Below, piece by piece: positions 45,945 to 53,733 of a DNA stretch of 64,000 bases. Position 1 is the stretch's first letter. Each line of letters opens with the position of its first letter. The notes under the pieces are model-generated. The model saw only the letters and a list, made by a program, of their open reading frames with translations. It ran no database searches and had not been told where the DNA came from. This stretch comes from Synergistales bacterium. GTDB taxonomy: Bacteria; Synergistota; Synergistia; Synergistales; JAFGMB01. The position numbers and the translations under genes were made by a program. Location of the stretch: positions 832,001-896,000 of the forward strand of contig OY762654.1 in assembly GCA_963666205.1 (NCBI GenBank), in the 5' to 3' direction.

Positions 45945-46697
45945 TCACCCGAGGGGCAACTCGCTCTGGATATCTTTAAGGCGGATCTTCCGACCAACCC
46001 CGGTTTCGATGTAACCGGGAAATTGATTCCTGAAGACTTCTTTTGACAGATCGCCACTGCAATGACATGGAGCAGGATGAGAAAGCCCCTTCTTTGCAAG
46101 TGTAGATGCCAGAAGTTCTATCTCGAACCTGGAACGGGCTTCCAGATGAAGACCTCCAATTATCATCAGCAGTTTATCCGGGGAAATACATTCAACCTTT
46201 TCGAGGATACTTTTCACCCCGGGATGAGCACAACCCGTCATTACGACGAGTCCTCTATCAGTCTCTATTACCATGGCTATTTCCCTGGTCATATCTCCCG
46301 TTTCTGTAGTAACGGAAACCCCGGGCATGATCTGCAGACACGATGAAACTGGCACTAATCCTGCTCCAGAGGCTAGAATTCTCTCAAGAAATCCCCTGGC
46401 AAAGGAAGAAGGAAAGTAAACTGAAATTTCATGGTTTTGTTCCAGAAGGGCATCGATCCCACCTGTATGATCGCCATGAAAATGAGAAAGCACCACTATA
46501 TCTATATCACGAGGAGAAATGCCGAGTTTTTGCATATTGGAAAGAAGGACCTCCCCCCTTGCGCCTGTATCGAAGAGGATAGTTTCTCCTGCCCCTTCGA
46601 CGAGACAGGAAAAACCCCATCCTGCCTGAAGGTCATTCTCAGCGGTTATGTTGTCATAGAGGATAGTCAGTGATATTTCAGAGGACATTATTTTCAT
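45945..46697 (-). CDS. MBL-fold metallo-hydrolase
   Basis: WGFS, LFDTG, SHFHGDHTGG, TGCAHPG, GGLH, PCHCSG; start 46697. Confidence 0.85.
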   Translation of the reverse strand: MKIMSSEISLTILYDNITAENDLQAGWGFSCLVEGAGETILFDTGARGEVLLSNMQKLGISPRDIDIVVLSHFHGDHTGGIDALLEQNHEISVYFPSSFARGFLERILASGAGLVPVSSCLQIMPGVSVTTETGDMTREIAMVIETDRGLVVMTGCAHPGVKSILEKVECISPDKLLMIIGGLHLEARSRFEIELLASTLAKKGLSHPAPCHCSGDLSKEVFRNQFPGYIETGVGRKIRLKDIQSELPLG

Positions 46698-47406
46698 TTT
46701 TCGTACACTCCTGCTCTTCATAAATGAGTTGACCTGTCCTTCTTTAAAGGAGAAATGCGGAAAATAATAATGTGAATTATCGCGATCTGTGGTCAAGCCA
46801 AGAGGTAGAAATGCATCTGGCAGAGGGATATTTGCCAGATGTGGGAATCCCCATAAGATATCTGTCCAGATCATCCGTTCCTCATTGACCGGTAATTATA
46901 ATCACCGATCTTTTTCTTATCAGTTCTTGTATTATACTCATATTTCCCTGAATGCTAAACCAGGAGTATTCTCTTCAAAGATAAACAGTGACTGTGAAAT
47001 TCTGTTACTTTCAATATTTTTCCAGGTGGCATATGATATGGCATGATAGTTTGTCAACTGGTCAGTTTCATGAATTAAGACATGATCTATCGAACCTTTA
47101 TAAATTCAGGATCCCAGAAACAGATTTGACCATACCGTGATCCCTTTATAACCCCATCGATCCACTGACCCCCCTGGCGCCTTCATAGGTCCTCTAAGAT
47201 ACGGCTTCCGGTAAGAATCTATACATAAACCATCAGGAAATAACAATGTATTTCCAGTCAAGAAAATACAAATTCCTTGAGCATTATCTCCTGAAAGTCA
47301 CTTTTCCATAGGTGCCTGTAAGGAATATCCTTGCACTAATCCTGCAGTAAGGAGTAAATTACCAATGTCTTGCCATAATCTTATAACATCAGAAAGGAGG
47401 GTTTAC

Positions 47407-47733
47407 ATGTTCTACAGAAGAGAAGACCAAAAACCGAGAATTGATCAGGATGGGTTCAGACAGACCGTTCTTGCGCGGGGTGGGAGTATGATGTTGACCG
47501 AAGGAGAGTTCAGAAAAGGAGGACTGGCACCTATCCATAGCCACCCCCACGAACAGATAGCCTATGTGTCAAGGGGGTCATTCCGTTTCAGGATAGGCGA
47601 AGAAGTAAGGGAGATCCATGAAGGAGACAGCCTGTTCGTTCCTGCCAACGTAAAACATGATTGTGAAGCACTGGAAGACGGATCCGTAATAATTGATATC
47701 TTCAGCCCGCAGAGGGAAGATTTCCTCATTTAA
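47407..47733 (+). CDS. Cupin-domain protein
   Basis: HSHPHEQ, GDSLFVPANVKH, DIFSPQREDF. Confidence 0.88.
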   Translation: MFYRREDQKPRIDQDGFRQTVLARGGSMMLTEGEFRKGGLAPIHSHPHEQIAYVSRGSFRFRIGEEVREIHEGDSLFVPANVKHDCEALEDGSVIIDIFSPQREDFLI

Positions 47734-47887
47734 ACAGGACACTAACTCTCAGGATAACCTTTCCCCAGGAGGACAAGAGATACCCTTTCAGATATCTCTC
47801 GTCCTCCTGTTTTTTCCTCTTTAACTCGATGTTTAGAAGCTGCTCATTACTGAATATATTTCAACTAATAAAAATATTTTTTACCTA

Positions 47888-47915
47888 TTGCATTTCTCCC
47901 GGAAAGGACTATAAT
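47888..47915 (+). promoter_or_regulatory. Promoter of the ATP-grasp operon, giving a ~210-nt leader
   Basis: TTGCAT-N16-TATAAT. Confidence 0.6.
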
Positions 47916-47954
47916 TCGCTCAAAATCAGTTAACGGATTGAAACCAAATTTTCT

Positions 47955-48092
47955 ATGGAAAGACACCATAAAATGGTGAAGAAAAGAAGGTTCAGTCATA
48001 TTATGTCAAGCCCAGATCCTCGTTTTCCTCCCGGAAAAAAGGGTGGGTTTTTTTTATGGGCTCAAGTGCTGGTTAGATCATCAGAGATCTGA
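47955..48092 (+). CDS. Putative 45-aa leader/attenuator peptide
   Basis: MERHHKMVKKRRFSHIMSSPDPRFPPGKKGGFFLWAQVLVRSSEI*; overlaps the leader terminator; no clear SD. Confidence 0.45.
   Translation: MERHHKMVKKRRFSHIMSSPDPRFPPGKKGGFFLWAQVLVRSSEI
48008..48055 (+). terminator. Intrinsic terminator within the 5' leader (attenuator)
   Basis: AAGCCCA..TTTTCC-tccc-GGAAAA..TGGG followed by T8, upstream of the first CDS. Confidence 0.6.
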
Positions 48093-48134
48093 TGTGAGAC
48101 AGTAAATATTTCCTCAAAAAGGAGAGGACAGAAA

Positions 48135-49190
48135 ATGTGGGAAACAAAAGAGGGAAAAGAAGAGGTTCCGCTAAGGGTAAGTAAAGTAGGAATAGCATAT
48201 AATCTCCGCCGACAGGCTGAGGTGGGTCAACCTGATGACCTTTATGAGGAGTATGACTGCATGGATACAGTACGCTCCATATCAGGTGAAATAGAACGCT
48301 ACGGTTTCGAAACATGCATGCTGGAACAGGATGAAAACTTTCTGGAAAAGATTTTCCAGAACAAGCCCGGTTTCGTCTTCAATATAGCTGAAGGAGTAGG
48401 TGGAACAAGGGGAAGGGAAGCCCAGATCCCTTCTATCCTGGAAAGCATTGGAATACCCTACTCCGGATCTGATGGAGTTTCACTTTCAATAACCCTGGAC
48501 AAGTATCTGACCCACAAGATCCTCTCTTCCTCCAACATCAGGGTTCCCGCTTTTTACCACTTTGCCGCAGAAGAAGATTTTGAGAATTCGGAAGAGATCT
48601 TTGACTATCATGAATTATGCATTGTCAAACCTCGATGGGAAGGCTCCTCCAAGGGAGTGTTCAAAGATTCCATAGCTCAAACACATGAAGAAATGAAGGA
48701 TAAAGTCAGAAGAATATGGAAGATGTACAAAGAACCGGCCATTGTGGAAGAATATCTGCCCGGAGATGAGATTACCGTCGGAATAATGGGTAACGGGACC
48801 CAGAAGGTCCTCGGAATGATGCGGATAGTTCCTTTACACAAGGAAGAAGGTCACTTTCTATATTCACTTCAACATAAACGGGAATGGGAGGAACTGATAA
48901 AGTACCAGGGACCCGAAACAATTCCCGACCATGTCCGAAAGGCTCTTTCAGATGCAGCTAAAAAGACTTTCAAGGTTATGGATCTCAGGGATGTAGCCCG
49001 TATAGATTTCCGGCTGGACACTAACGGTATCCCGAGAGTAATAGACGTCAATCCCCTGCCAGGTCTTTCTCCCAGGTATAGCGACCTGATAATTCTCCAC
49101 AGGCTTAGCGGTGGAGAATACAAGGAAATAATCAGGGGGATCCTCAAGGAATCCTTTCACAGAAACAACCTGGAATGGTCGTGGAATTGA
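48135..49190 (+). CDS. D-Ala-D-Ala ligase-like ATP-grasp protein 1
   Basis: FNIAEG, PYSGS, LDK, KPRWEGSSKG, EEYLPG, RIDFR, DVNPLPGL. Confidence 0.85.
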   Translation: MWETKEGKEEVPLRVSKVGIAYNLRRQAEVGQPDDLYEEYDCMDTVRSISGEIERYGFETCMLEQDENFLEKIFQNKPGFVFNIAEGVGGTRGREAQIPSILESIGIPYSGSDGVSLSITLDKYLTHKILSSSNIRVPAFYHFAAEEDFENSEEIFDYHELCIVKPRWEGSSKGVFKDSIAQTHEEMKDKVRRIWKMYKEPAIVEEYLPGDEITVGIMGNGTQKVLGMMRIVPLHKEEGHFLYSLQHKREWEELIKYQGPETIPDHVRKALSDAAKKTFKVMDLRDVARIDFRLDTNGIPRVIDVNPLPGLSPRYSDLIILHRLSGGEYKEIIRGILKESFHRNNLEWSWN

Positions 49191-50275
49191 TGAAAGGAAA
49201 CCCTGGCATGAAAGGTCCCCTTCTCGTAATAGCCAGTGAAGAGGAAACCGAAAGGGAGGACATGCTCGATATCCTGCGATGCCGGAACGCAGTTATGGAA
49301 GGACTTTCATCTGCTGGATATGACGTTACGGGGCTGAACATTACACCTGCCGATTTTCAGGACCTGCCGTCCATGATCAGAAGGATCAGGGGGATCAGAC
49401 CATCCTGCATATTCAACCTTTTTGAAGGGTTCAGCGGTAAGCCAGTCCTGGAAAGGGAATTCTGCAGAATACTGGAAAACCTGGATATCCCCTTCACCGG
49501 CAATACTTCGGCGACCCTTGGTAAGTGCCTTAACAAGGATGAAACAAAGAAGCATCTTAAAAAGGCAGGAATAACTGTTCCTGGTGGATACATCGTAAGA
49601 AGTCATCTACAGGTCGTCCCCTCAAGGATTCGTTATCCCCTCTTCATCAAACCCTGCTGTGAAGATGGGAGTGTCGGGATAGATCATCGATCAATAATAG
49701 TGGGACCAGAAGACCTGGCCGCAAGACTTGAGGAAAAACTTTTGCGGCATCCCTCTGGAATCGTTGTGGAAGAATTCATCCCCGGAAGGGAATTTAACGT
49801 TGCATTCCTTGGAAATGGGCCCTATGAGATGCAATCAGTGTCGGTTTTGGATTATGCCAGGTATGAAGGCGTTCAACCCTTTCTGGGATACGATTCCAAG
49901 TGGGACCCCGCTTCTCCCGATTACAGTATGACCTTTACCGAGTTGGACGAAGGGAAAGACAGGGAACTGAAAACCAGTATAGGTCGGATAGCTTCAAAAG
50001 CTGGCCATGTACTGGGATGCAGAAGCTACTTCAGGGTTGACCTGCGTGAACGGGATGGGGAAATGTACGTTCTGGATGTAAACCCGAACCCTGACATTAA
50101 TCTGGACAGCGGCTTCGTCAGGCAGAGTCGCACCCGGGGTTACTCATACCCGCAACTTCTTGAGCATATAATCAATCTAGCACTGGAAGAAAAAATGGAG
50201 AAGAACAATTATGAAATACAGCGTACAGGATTATATAAAGATAGCAGAATCGACAAAAGCCTTTACCTCTCCTGA
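49190..50275 (+). CDS. D-Ala-D-Ala ligase-like ATP-grasp protein 2
   Basis: FNLFEG, PFTG, KPCCEDGSVG, EEFIPGRE, RVDLR, DVNPNPD; TGATG coupling to the upstream gene. Confidence 0.85.
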   Translation: MKGNPGMKGPLLVIASEEETEREDMLDILRCRNAVMEGLSSAGYDVTGLNITPADFQDLPSMIRRIRGIRPSCIFNLFEGFSGKPVLEREFCRILENLDIPFTGNTSATLGKCLNKDETKKHLKKAGITVPGGYIVRSHLQVVPSRIRYPLFIKPCCEDGSVGIDHRSIIVGPEDLAARLEEKLLRHPSGIVVEEFIPGREFNVAFLGNGPYEMQSVSVLDYARYEGVQPFLGYDSKWDPASPDYSMTFTELDEGKDRELKTSIGRIASKAGHVLGCRSYFRVDLRERDGEMYVLDVNPNPDINLDSGFVRQSRTRGYSYPQLLEHIINLALEEKMEKNNYEIQRTGLYKDSRIDKSLYLS

Positions 50276-50675
50276 GATAAAAACTCTGCGGGAAGTCCTG
50301 GAAGAATGGGAAGCAAACCCCGGAAAGGACTACCTTCTTCTTCACGAAGAAGATCAGGAAGGATTGATGGGCTTTCTGATATACGGATCTACGCCTATGA
50401 CTGAAAGCGGTTTCGACCTTTACTGGATAGCGGTAAAAAAAACAGGACAGAGGAAAGGTATGGGCAGGAAGCTTGTCCTGGAAATGGAAAACCGTATTCT
50501 CGAAGAAAAGGGACGAGGTGTTATAAGGATCGAGACTTCCGGTAGGGAACAGTATAAGGGGCAGCGACAATTCTACCTTTCACTGGGATACTCCGAATGT
50601 GGACGTATCAGGAATTTCTACCATCAGGGTGACGATCTCGTAACATTTTCAAAATCCATCCAGGGAATGAATTAA
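50211..50675 (+). CDS. GNAT N-acetyltransferase
   Basis: DLYWIAV..QRKGMGRKL, IETS, FYLSLGY. Confidence 0.88.
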   Translation: MKYSVQDYIKIAESTKAFTSPEIKTLREVLEEWEANPGKDYLLLHEEDQEGLMGFLIYGSTPMTESGFDLYWIAVKKTGQRKGMGRKLVLEMENRILEEKGRGVIRIETSGREQYKGQRQFYLSLGYSECGRIRNFYHQGDDLVTFSKSIQGMN

Positions 50676-50786
50676 GGAGGGGAATCGAATCTCCTTCTTT
50701 GATCATTTCTCTGTAACTTGCAGGATTACATTCATTACAGGAAAAGGATGTAAGAAAAGGTTCCTTAACAATATGGAGGAAATTCG

Positions 50787-52529
50787 ATGTTCAGGATAAG
50801 ACGGGTACTTGATGACATTATTCCTGTCAACAGGGACGCGATCATACAGGTTCAACAGATGACAAGGGCTCAGTTTCCCGATATTCGGGAAACTGAGGTG
50901 GAAAAGATCCCTGATATGCTCAGAAATTCCCTTAAGTACGGATTTCAGACCATTCTTCTTATCGCCGAGGGAGAGGCAAGAAAGATCATGGGTTTTGCTC
51001 TTCTTCTCTATGATCCCCTTCTTCGTTATGCCTACCTTGATTTTATAGCGGCTGGACTGCCCCTCACGGGCAGAGGGCTTGGAAGCATCCTCTATGAAAG
51101 GATCCGAAAGGAATCACTGGAACTTGGTGCAAAGGGACTCTTTTTTGAGTGTCTTCCTGACGACCCTCTTTTGTCCAGAAATGAGGATACCCGAAAACAG
51201 AATGAATCCCGTCTTCGTTTTTACGAAAGGTATGGAGCCAGGCCGATCATTAACACACTTTACGAAACTCCCCTTACTGCTGAAGGCGATAATCCGCCAT
51301 ACCTTGTATTTGACCCTCTGGGCCAGGAAACCCCCTTGAGAAAGAACAGGGCTCGCCTGATCGTTCGTTCCATTCTCGAGAAGAAATACCCGGACCTGTG
51401 CACCCCTGAGTATACAGCAATGGTAGTATCCTCCTTCAAGGATGACCCGGTAAGGATCCGTCCACCCAGATATATAAAGGAACTTGCAAAAACTAATGTT
51501 CCAAGGGAAATACCGGAGGATGAAAAAATAGTCCTTGTGATCAATTCCGGTCATGAGATCCATCACGTGAGGGAAAGAGGATACGTGGAATCTCCTGTGA
51601 GGATAAGTGCAATTTTAAAGGAGATCGAAAACACAGGCCTTTTTATGACCAGAAAGGCCAGGCACTTTGGAAGGTCCTGGGTAACAAGTGTTCATGACAA
51701 AGATTTCATAAACTACCTTGAAAAGATCTGCCTCGGGGTCGATGGAGACAGATCTGTTTATCCCTATGTATTCCCCATAAGGAACAATGCCCGGCCGCCA
51801 AAGGAACTTTCTGTTCGTGCAGGTTACTACTGCATAGACACCTTTACCCCCTTGAACAGAAATGCCTATCTGGCAGCAAGAAATGCCGTAGACTGCACCC
51901 TGACCTGTGCCCAGTCTCTATTGAGTGGGACCCACCTCGCCTATTCCCTCGTCAGACCCCCGGGACACCATGCAGAAAGGAGAAGCTTTGGAGGATTCTG
52001 CTATCTTAACAGCACTGCCATAGCAGCCCAGTATCTTTCGGGAAAAGGACGAGTAGTCATCCTGGACATGGACTACCATCATGGCAACGGGCAGCAGAAC
52101 ATATTTTATAAGAGAAAGGATGTATTCACCATATCGATACATGGTCATCCATCCTTTGCATATCCCTACTTCAGCGGATTTAACGACGAAAAAGGACTTT
52201 TTGAAGGAGAAGGCTTTAATCTCAACATTCCTCTTGGAGAACAGGTCCACGGTGAAATATACAGAGAAGCCCTTAAAAAAGCACTGAAAAGAGTAAAAGA
52301 ATATGATCCTGATTTTCTGATCATAGCCCTTGGGCTGGACATATCGAGAAAAGACCCTACTGGAACGTGGGATCTTTTAGCAAAGGATTTTTTCCTTAAC
52401 GGAAAACTGGTAGGAAAATTGAATCGGCCAACCCTGGTAGTCCAGGAAGGCGGCTATAACACAAGGGTTCTCGGTCAGAACGCAAGAAATTTTTTCACAG
52501 GCCTCTGGCAGGGAGCATACAGGGATTAG
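50787..52529 (+). CDS. GNAT plus histone-deacetylase/acetylpolyamine amidohydrolase fusion
   Basis: N-terminal YLDFIAA..GRGLGSILY..RFYERYG; C-terminal RPPGHHA, GGFCYLN, DMDYHHGNG, QEGGY. Confidence 0.88.
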   Translation: MFRIRRVLDDIIPVNRDAIIQVQQMTRAQFPDIRETEVEKIPDMLRNSLKYGFQTILLIAEGEARKIMGFALLLYDPLLRYAYLDFIAAGLPLTGRGLGSILYERIRKESLELGAKGLFFECLPDDPLLSRNEDTRKQNESRLRFYERYGARPIINTLYETPLTAEGDNPPYLVFDPLGQETPLRKNRARLIVRSILEKKYPDLCTPEYTAMVVSSFKDDPVRIRPPRYIKELAKTNVPREIPEDEKIVLVINSGHEIHHVRERGYVESPVRISAILKEIENTGLFMTRKARHFGRSWVTSVHDKDFINYLEKICLGVDGDRSVYPYVFPIRNNARPPKELSVRAGYYCIDTFTPLNRNAYLAARNAVDCTLTCAQSLLSGTHLAYSLVRPPGHHAERRSFGGFCYLNSTAIAAQYLSGKGRVVILDMDYHHGNGQQNIFYKRKDVFTISIHGHPSFAYPYFSGFNDEKGLFEGEGFNLNIPLGEQVHGEIYREALKKALKRVKEYDPDFLIIALGLDISRKDPTGTWDLLAKDFFLNGKLVGKLNRPTLVVQEGGYNTRVLGQNARNFFTGLWQGAYRD

Positions 52530-52634
52530 TTGAACCCGAAAACTCAGCACTATCACCTTTTACTACAGCTGATAGTCGAGTTCCTGGCAGCATATGCCGA
52601 TAACGGGACATGATCATGGGGATGGTGCCGCTGT

Positions 52635-52852
52635 ATGTGGAGGTGGGGAGATAGTGGTTTTATGATGATCCTGCCCTTATTGCCGGTGATAATACTGTTC
52701 TATTTTTTTATGAAGGCCCGCTCCGGCAAGGAGAACGAAGTACCCAGACCTATACACCTCTGGAGATACTTAAGAAACGTTACGCACAGGGCGAAATAAC
52801 AAAAGAGCAATTCGAAGAGATGAAAAAGGAACTGCAAGGCATGGAACAATAG
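52635..52852 (+). pseudogene. Frameshifted SHOCT-domain membrane protein
   Basis: TM part MWRWGDSGFMMILPLLPVIILFYFFMK is in one frame; SHOCT part TPLEILKKRYAQGEITKEQFEEMKKEL is in another. Confidence 0.65.
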
Positions 52853-52931
52853 ATCCATTCGGGCAGTATTATTTTATATTTCGAAAACGGGGAATTCGTC
52901 TTTGCTGGTGAACTCCCCGTTTTGGTTCAAC

Positions 52932-52967
52932 AAAAAACATCCCCGGGCTTGGACCCCCAGGGATGTT
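52932..52967 (-). terminator. Intrinsic terminator immediately 3' of the GEMM aptamer
   Basis: AACAUCCCUGGG-N8-CCCGGGGAUGUU plus U-run; a second hairpin follows at about 52884-52923. Confidence 0.75.
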
Positions 52968-52969
52968 AT

Positions 52970-53121
52970 TCTTTAAAGGCAGCCCGGCCGGCCTGACTGT
53001 CGGTTTTACATTCAACCCAAAGAAACCTTACTCTTGCAAGATTCCTTTGAATATAAAATCCGTTTTAGTCCCGTGGCTTTGCGCCACCGTCTTTTGACGG
53101 CTTCGCTCTTATCTTTAAAGA
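52970..53121 (-). ncRNA. GEMM-I cyclic dinucleotide riboswitch, G20A variant
   Basis: UCUUUAAAG..AGC-GAA-GCCGUC-AAAA-GACGGU-GGC-GCAAAGCCACGGGACUAA..long P3..GCCGGGCUGC-CUUUAAAGA; promoter TTGCAA-N16-TATAAT at 53156-53129. Confidence 0.85.
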
Positions 53122-53364
53122 GTACCTCATTATACTTCTAATCTGATGAATTGCAACTGATTCACATGGATATCTCCGGGGAATAGCCTCCATTATATAT
53201 TTATATTCCACTCTAACTGTTTATCCCGTCTGTTTTCGATAAAAACAGGGAAAACCCGGCAAATCCTTTAAAAATAGAATAACTGCTACACCTGAGAGCT
53301 GGAATTTTTTTCTGAGACTTCAACACGATGATACAGACAGGTGATCCTGTGTTAAAATAATTTC

Positions 53365-53733
53365 ATGAATGACGAAGAAATGACTCTTGGACTCTTTATC
53401 AAGTTTCTGGCAAAGTACTCCAGCATTCTAGCCGTTTTATTTATCGTTATGATCTCCTTCAGCAAGGGACACATTCCTCAAAGCCCTTCAATGGATGATC
53501 TTGGGCTTTTTCTCTGTTTTCCTGTAGGTGTATCCATAGGCCTGCTTTTAGCTCTTAAATATGAAGGAATAGGCGGCCTTGTAACCATTACTTCCATCGT
53601 GATCTTTTATGCCTTTAATTCATATCTCTGGGGTAATTACCCCGATGAATCCTACTACCTGATCCTCTCCTTCCCATCTGTCCTCTCTCTTCTCTCATGC
53701 CTGTTGAACGACCCGGATTTCAGCAACAGGTAA
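53365..53733 (+). CDS. Hypothetical 4-TM membrane protein
   Basis: Hydrophobic ORF containing GLLLALKYEGIGG. Confidence 0.65.
   Translation: MNDEEMTLGLFIKFLAKYSSILAVLFIVMISFSKGHIPQSPSMDDLGLFLCFPVGVSIGLLLALKYEGIGGLVTITSIVIFYAFNSYLWGNYPDESYYLILSFPSVLSLLSCLLNDPDFSNR

Follow-up and report, generated by a model that had tools for sequence, protein, structure and literature searches.

Features of the locus

The window, that is, the whole 64,000-nt stretch of DNA that was analysed, carries on its minus strand a short predicted transcription unit made up of a sigma-70-like promoter, a GEMM-I aptamer, and an intrinsic terminator (Table 1). The unit faces a convergent plus-strand operon, in which a D-Ala-D-Ala-ligase-like ATP-grasp protein, a GNAT protein, a 580-aa fusion of a GNAT and a histone-deacetylase-family domain, and a small membrane/SHOCT protein are encoded in that order. 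Upstream of the aptamer one finds a plus-strand gene for a DUF7670 membrane protein and then a minus-strand gene for an AlaE-type exporter. Downstream, there is no minus-strand gene for approximately 6 kb, the next ORF of at least 110 aa being located at 45945–46874.

Two points should be kept in mind when reading the space between the aptamer and the operon. The SHOCT gene is spread over two frames: its N-terminal transmembrane part is a 54-aa ORF (52635–52799), and the SHOCT domain lies in another frame, which ends at 52852. In the sister species, this gene carries an additional base and its frame is uninterrupted; we therefore ascribe the interruption to a 1-nt deletion or to an assembly error in the window genome. 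The second point is a hairpin between an A-run and a T-run, which was read from the sequence. It is a probable bidirectional terminator closing the operon; in the sister species, the sequence of its stem (~52924–52884) differs and is still self-complementary.

Throughout the text, G000 denotes the window genome, G001 the species representative of a second species of the same genus (the sister species), and G001–G004 the other genomes of the family.

Table 1. Coordinates of the features discussed, in window positions unless a genome is named
Feature	Position	Strand	Basis or remark
Sigma-70-like promoter (TTGCAA, 16 nt, TATAAT)	53156..53129	-	Promoter scan, 10/12 matches
GEMM-I aptamer, P1 to P1	53121..52970	-	cmscan, MFE fold, consensus structure, sister species
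P1, 9 bp, A/U-rich	53121-53113 with 52978-52970	-	MFE fold
A at the position equivalent to Vc2 G20	53107	-	RF01051 alignment, model position 11
P3 extension (~60 nt) beyond the Rfam consensus: long helix and inner hairpin with a C-AAGA-G tetraloop at its tip	53002..53062	-	cmscan, MFE, RNAalifold
Intrinsic terminator: 12-bp stem (7 G-C), 8-nt loop, six U	52967..52932	-	Terminator scan
Second hairpin, between A-run and T-run	52884..52924		Read from the sequence
Small membrane/SHOCT gene, convergent, two frames, last of the operon	52635..52852	+	SHOCT PF09851, E 1.3e-11, second frame
Convergent operon: ATP-grasp, GNAT, GNAT-deacetylase fusion, SHOCT	47365-52852	+	ORFs, profile search
Long-P3 paralog L016, G20	G000:C1:2072714-2072873	-	Same genome
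Long-P3 copy L035/L096, G20	G001		
Long-P3 copy L109, A20	G003		
Long-P3 copy L155/L185, A20	G002		
Long-P3 copy L114, A20	Sediment metagenome contig		

An aptamer of the GEMM-I class

The sole Rfam match returned by cmscan in the whole window was RF01051 (c-di-GMP-I), at 53117..52975 on the minus strand. It scored 53.2 bits (E 1.4e-7) against a gathering threshold of 35 bits and covered the complete model (positions 1–87), the distal loop of P3 containing 60 inserted nucleotides. The covariance model thereby bears out the GEMM-I aptamer that a preliminary description of this DNA had placed at 52970–53121, and these limits correspond to the outer P1 helix of the predicted fold. When the whole genome was searched with RF01051, this copy scored 30.8 bits as a truncated match (885018–885117, equivalent to 53018–53117 of the window), probably as a result of the P3 insertion. 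RNAalifold, applied to the six copies with a long P3 described below, predicted 41 pairs, of which 7 are compensatory and fall in P1, the base of P3, and the extension. Because the E-value, this covariation, and the conservation in the sister species point the same way, the assignment goes beyond chance: the RNA is a genuine GEMM-I aptamer, of the c-di-GMP riboswitch class.

In the MFE fold, P1 consists almost entirely of A and U, and its two strands are copies of one palindromic word. The loops are non-GNRA on both arms, that of P2 being AAAA. Both this loop and the long P3 with its inner hairpin had been recorded in the preliminary description and are present in the sequence and the MFE fold. 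The suggestion made there that the AAAA loop may be a sign of decay does not hold up, as high-scoring aptamers with G at position 20 that lie upstream of genes carry AAAA as well (L002 in the window genome; L103 and L089 in relatives).

A predicted transcription unit without a gene

The promoter places the predicted transcription start at approximately 53125–53122, that is, 1–4 nt ahead of P1, and the terminator hairpin begins two nucleotides past P1. Aptamer and terminator coexist side by side in the MFE fold, with mean pair probabilities in the ensemble of 0.95 for P1 and 0.97 for the terminator, and the sequence of the sister species folds identically. Forcing the left arm of the terminator open costs approximately 19 kcal/mol, and the freed arm then finds nothing else to pair with. 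No antiterminator competing with the aptamer, and hence no expression platform, was found in the MFE fold, the ensemble, or the comparison with the ortholog. Since P1 and the terminator coexist without any alternative pairing, the terminator looks constitutive in these models, and the aptamer is predicted to form a free-standing promoter-aptamer-terminator unit of approximately 190 nt.

The only coupling seen between the two elements is a weak one. If the 5' half of the aptamer is unavailable, or if P1 is open, the model predicts that the 3' strand of P1, which is rich in A, lengthens the terminator helix onto the U-run; this could possibly influence termination.

Two other candidate pairings were considered and rejected. 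The first is a 7-bp antiterminator between CCGGGCU, on the 3' side of the base of P3, and AGCCCGG, in the loop and right arm of the terminator; the ortholog has a mismatch here, and the terminator stays at 0.97. The second is an alternative 5' hairpin pairing position 20 with one base of P1, for which there is apparent covariation (U:A20 in the window copy and G003, C:G20 in L016). The G002 copy has C opposite A20, so the pairing holds in 3/4 lineages only, and we make no claim for it.

Conservation and the question of decay

The orthologous region of the sister species is 89% identical over 1233 nt. Identity is 184/192 (95.8%) for the aptamer plus terminator, 147/153 for the aptamer from P1 to P1, and 352/369 (95.4%) for the neighbouring DUF7670 ORF, as against 178/208 (85.6%) for the intergenic DNA upstream of the promoter, 53/77 (68.8%) for the spacer after the terminator, and 185/220 (84.1%) for the SHOCT region. 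Of the six differences within the aptamer, five are located in the inner hairpin that belongs to the P3 extension; they leave its pairing intact and include a double change from C-G to U-A. In the terminator stem, a single change converts a U.G pair to U-A. Both promoter hexamers are identical, and the A at position 20 is conserved. Because the unit is better conserved than its flanks (95.8% versus 68.8–85.6%) and because the changes preserve pairing, the aptamer unit is under purifying selection.

These figures bear directly on the view that the RNA is a relic, namely the duplicate of a long-P3 riboswitch that has lost its gene and its P1-coupled U-run and is now transcribed and terminated without a role. 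One can see why this would be proposed: no ORF follows, no switchable platform is present, the apical tetraloop is AAGA as opposed to GAGA in two paralogous lineages, and two positions of the conserved AAA junction vary among the copies. Moreover, the SHOCT gene next to it carries a frameshift of its own, and in the genomes searched the lineage of the window copy turned up in no other genus. The AAGA tetraloop and the loss of the U-run after P1 could represent early decay. A relic would nevertheless not be expected to match an adjacent coding gene in its conservation, to keep its pairing through each of the five inner-hairpin changes, to strengthen a terminator pair, and to retain intact promoter hexamers, and we consider this explanation unlikely.

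The ligand pocket

Position 11 of the RF01051 model is an unpaired consensus G immediately 5' of a G-C pair, and in the window RNA it is A. We take this position to be G20 of the Vibrio aptamer Vc2, by our own numbering of the Vc2 sequence, anchored on A47. On this numbering, the RF01051 alignment confirms the A that had been assigned to the G20 position at nt 53107. The other two pocket bases are kept, A47 as the first A of GCAAAGCC and the equivalent of C92 within the GCU-G-CC 3' segment. The pocket thus departs from the canonical G20/A47/C92 at position 20 alone and reads A20/A47/C92, a known A variant.

Two published sources (PMC6140456, PMC5888326) give the Vc2 pocket as G20, A47, and C92; G20 reads G-alpha's Hoogsteen edge via its own Watson–Crick edge, and C92 pairs with G-beta. 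The equivalent of G20 in the Geobacter cGAMP riboswitch Gs1761 is A14. According to the same sources, Vc2 G20A binds c-di-GMP with an affinity of 53 nM and cGAMP with one of 120 nM, and the recognition of c-di-GMP in an A20 pocket involves a protonated adenine. Cbe 1-2, a natural A20 aptamer of Clostridium beijerinckii, is listed at 30 nM for c-di-GMP and 463 nM for cGAMP (PMC6140456), whereas in Gmet_0970 the single change A20G switches selectivity from cGAMP to c-di-GMP (PMC6456294). In other words, A20 is needed for the reading of cGAMP, yet is insufficient for selectivity. The proposal that A20 is the hallmark of cGAMP-selective aptamers consequently survives in part: the A20/A47/C92 signature is indeed common to this RNA and Geobacter GEMM-Ib, but selectivity does not follow from it, as both Vc2 G20A and Cbe 1-2 bind c-di-GMP.

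The comparison with the Geobacter GEMM-Ib riboswitches (Gs1761/pgcA and Gmet_0970), as these are described in PMC6456294, PMC8835794, and PMC5888326, can be taken somewhat further. In addition to the pocket, they share with the window RNA a place in transcription units with intrinsic terminators. There are three differences. Geobacter possesses the Hypr GGDEF enzyme GacA (Ser348), whereas the Hypr signature occurs in 0/10 GGDEF domains of the window genome; most Geobacter GEMM-I copies are A20 (12–13/17; PMC8835794), whereas only 2/17 are in the window genome; and in Geobacter the copies function as ON switches placed before cytochrome and pilus genes, whereas the window RNA has no gene. As A20 variants of GEMM-I are already in the literature (PMC6140456, PMC5888326), the class assignment as such is ordinary.

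Relatives with a long P3

The window copy belongs to a small subtype with a long P3, of which five further entries are listed in Table 1. Its members share a palindromic A/U-rich P1, a GGGACU...AGUC segment in P3, a capped inner hairpin, and a TATAAT promoter of their own. They also share a 7-nt AGGCCRG bulge and the AAAA loop on P2, except that the G002 copy lacks the bulge and has GAAA as its P2 loop. The closest paralogs of the window copy are L016 and its ortholog, which have G20 and a core that is otherwise nearly identical.

Besides that of the window copy, the subtype has three lineages (L016/L035, L109/L114, and the G002 copy), which differ from the window copy in what follows the aptamer. 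Their TATAAT lies 8–10 nt before P1, and a U6–U7 tract adjoins the 3' strand of P1 without a gap, so that P1 would itself serve as the terminator stem. To judge from this arrangement, the paralogs would be ligand-induced OFF switches, in which the stabilization of P1 by the ligand completes the terminator. The genes found 125–290 nt after them are mutually unrelated (a LysO-type exporter pair, a PALP dehydratase, and 2Fe-2S/Fe-hydrogenase-like genes). The window copy, by contrast, has no U-run after P1, a separate terminator, and no gene.

Scans for the subtype used exact patterns, which divergent members such as the G002 copy escaped. Among the genome contigs, 38 stretches were returned. Three are genuine (G001 contributes the ortholog and the paralog, G003 its single copy), and the rest are coincidences within coding sequences. 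The metagenome scan returned four stretches, of which one (L114) is real.

Occurrence of A20 in the order

GEMM-I was found in 19/61 sampled genomes of the Synergistales, the order of the window organism. Copy number is uneven, with 5–18 per genome in the family of the window and 2–4 in those genomes of families f6 and f9 that carry the motif; five families had no GEMM-I in the genomes searched. The window genome has 18 RF01051 matches, 16 of which are over the cut-off. Position 20 was read in all RF01051 matches retrieved, both by eye from the sequences and by a parser, and the two ambiguous parser rows proved to be non-riboswitch matches.

A20 was present in 2/17 aptamers of G000 (the window copy and L010; the 18th match has no 5' half), 3/19 of G001 (18 matches plus the ortholog, which was found by a DNA search), 1/13 of G003 (a 14th match is cut by the end of a contig), 1/12 of G002, and 0/5 of G004. 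This amounts to 7/66 for the family, compared with 0/36 in 14 genomes from other families of the order. Within the family, the long-P3 copies account for four of these (4/6) and all other copies for three (3/60). On the sequences sampled, A20 is a family-specific state that has recurred.

The three A20 copies outside the long-P3 type are all found in an array of tandem riboswitches and secreted beta-helix proteins, the remaining copies of which are G20. In the sister species, units one and three are A20; in the window genome, only unit one is (L010). Since A20 and G20 copies share their targets, and since the set of A20 copies differs between the species, base 20 appears to flip without a change of regulon, and to do so on a short time scale.

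The array of the window genome (G000:C1:1707703-1717930; L010, L005, L006, and L007) contains four nearly identical leaders, spaced at approximately 3 kb. A large secreted protein with parallel-beta-helix repeats apparently follows each of them, ORFs being listed downstream of L010 only. L010 itself reads A19 and A20, and its platform retains a UUUGCCC that matches G19/G20, so that the anti-antiterminator pairing is weakened. A further match, L017 (G000:C1:1557543-1557628; 32.7 bits, below the cut-off), is a GEMM-I remnant, which keeps P3 and a terminator platform like that of the tandem family and is without the 5' strand of P1, position 20, and P2.

Which dinucleotide is available

The preliminary description had inferred that the organism may use cGAMP signalling, and had suggested that the genome be searched for Hypr-type GGDEF enzymes or CD-NTases. 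The window genome is well suited to such a search, consisting of one contig of 2.95 Mb that is 100% complete. Hypr enzymes are marked by Ser (or Thr) at position 348 of GacA, where canonical enzymes have Asp (PMC6456294). We located the position by counting back 26 residues from the central D of the GGDEF motif (GacA S348 to D374); in an alignment with PleD, it corresponds to Asp344 and falls in the GHxxGD motif. All 10 GGDEF domains of the window genome read GHxxGD, with Asp at the Hypr position, and Ser or Thr occurs in none (0/10). In G001–G004, 30 of the 36 GGDEF matches were inspected; all 30 have Asp, and none has Ser or Thr (0/30). A profile search for SMODS (PF18144) gave no match in G000 or in G001–G004. 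The DncV-like profile PF21654 also gave no match in G000, and deserves little weight since it was silent in every control genome too.

No known route to cGAMP is, therefore, visible in the window genome, and the search lends no support to cGAMP signalling in this organism or in the four other genomes of the family. Divergent CD-NTases, or promiscuous GGDEF enzymes without Ser/Thr, would escape these profiles. Signalling by c-di-GMP, on the other hand, is richly represented, with 18 RF01051 matches and 10 GGDEF domains.

It is against this background that one should weigh the idea of a true 3',3'-cGAMP-selective sensor, with GEMM-Ib function, belonging to an A20-enriched long-P3 subfamily and served by a synthase that current profiles fail to recognise. 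The best argument in its favour is the occurrence of A20 in 4/6 long-P3 copies, in four lineages with unrelated downstream genes: A20 is non-random here and looks like the mark of a specialised subtype, which could have a different ligand, and this also speaks against the c-di-GMP reading. The Geobacter-like pocket, the Gmet_0970 precedent for a single-base swap of selectivity, and the retention of A20 in both species of the genus are consistent with it. So is the weak, A/U-rich P1, given that P1 stability has been suggested to influence ligand selectivity (PMC6140456). Against it stand the absence of the Ser/Thr signature from every GGDEF domain inspected in five genomes, the lack of any SMODS match in the same five, the G20 of L016 and its ortholog despite their near-identical core, and the preference for c-di-GMP of a natural A20 aptamer from outside Geobacter. 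On balance, a cGAMP-selective sensor seems improbable to us.

Transcripts, targets, and mode of action

Four metatranscriptome runs were compared, at the level of contigs, which carry no information on strand, ends, or level and may reflect DNA carry-over. One contig from an RNA library bridges 52587–53095, and thus both terminators, in a sister-like strain, and another spans 53020–53384; neither has a strand, and carry-over of DNA is possible for both. A search for trans targets of the 194-nt RNA in the genome with blastn-short recovered only paralogous aptamer cores and chance-level matches of 12–18 nt, the best complementarity outside the paralogs being 14–18 nt, with E of at least 0.4.

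The bridging contig would fit a ligand-controlled antisense or trans-acting RNA, in which the ligand alters termination or conformation and the effect is exerted through antisense read-through, pairing elsewhere, or buffering of the ligand. This proposal concerns output and is compatible with either ligand. The convergent geometry with the SHOCT / GNAT-deacetylase operon, which is conserved in the two species of the genus, agrees with it, as does the predicted extension of the terminator helix onto the U-run by the 3' strand of P1 as a possible weak coupling. Two tandem terminators, however, separate the aptamer from the operon, complementarity to the genome is no better than chance, and contigs of this kind cannot show strand, ends, or level. 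We consider ligand control of this sort unlikely.

Riboswitch-derived regulatory RNAs are represented by SreA/SreB of Listeria, AspocR, and EutX/Rli55 of Enterococcus. In these systems, as is predicted for the window RNA, an aptamer heads a short terminated RNA, which acts on something other than an ORF that follows it or controls an antisense RNA. For the window RNA, the complementarity search gave no target and the fold predictions gave no ligand-dependent switch. A literature search at listing level returned nothing pertinent on orphan c-di-GMP riboswitch sRNAs, and we make no claim that such RNAs are unpublished.

The reading that we favour, with slightly better than even confidence, is that the window RNA is a functional aptamer of the GEMM-I class with a bispecific pocket. 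It would meet c-di-GMP in its host, A20 would retune its affinity, and any action that it has would be that of a free RNA. Transcription from its own promoter would yield an RNA of approximately 190 nt ending at the strong intrinsic terminator. The A20 pocket could bind both c-di-GMP, by way of a protonated adenine, and 3',3'-cGAMP; c-di-GMP is the ligand most likely to be met, because ten canonical diguanylate cyclases are encoded in the genome and a cGAMP synthase could not be recognised there. The effect of A20 would accordingly be to lower or retune the affinity for c-di-GMP rather than to define a separate cGAMP regulon. Since there is no gene in cis and the terminator does not compete with the aptamer, output would take the form of the free RNA, or of occasional read-through antisense to the convergent operon. 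We think it very unlikely that the long-P3 GEMM-I subfamily of Acetomicrobium-like Synergistales senses 3',3'-cGAMP (or another adenine dinucleotide) made by a synthase of unrecognised type, with the window copy serving as a ligand-binding sRNA, sponge, or antisense/trans regulator.

Position 20 of GEMM-I is often employed as a sequence-only marker for cGAMP signalling. Because conserved A20 aptamers occur here beside G20 paralogs in a complete genome, and across its family, with no recognisable cGAMP synthase, the marker would mislead: either A20 tunes the sensing of c-di-GMP, or a synthase exists that is not yet known. The locus is also a clean natural case of selection maintaining an aptamer that has neither a gene nor a platform able to switch. 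Three features are less ordinary than the class assignment: a conserved unit with no gene and no switching; a long-P3 subtype confined to the family, with paralogs in which P1 would act as terminator; and, in a complete genome, the clear dissociation of A20 from every cGAMP synthase known.

Finally, anyone mapping RNA reads to this locus should be aware of its paralogs. Very deep metatranscriptome contigs (~600–1000, in two runs) match the conserved aptamer core at 53065–53098 only. We examined them as possible expression of the window copy and discarded them, as they run on into flanks like those of L002, another GEMM-I paralog. This L002-type paralog (G000:C1:638759-638846) may itself be abundant in RNA libraries.
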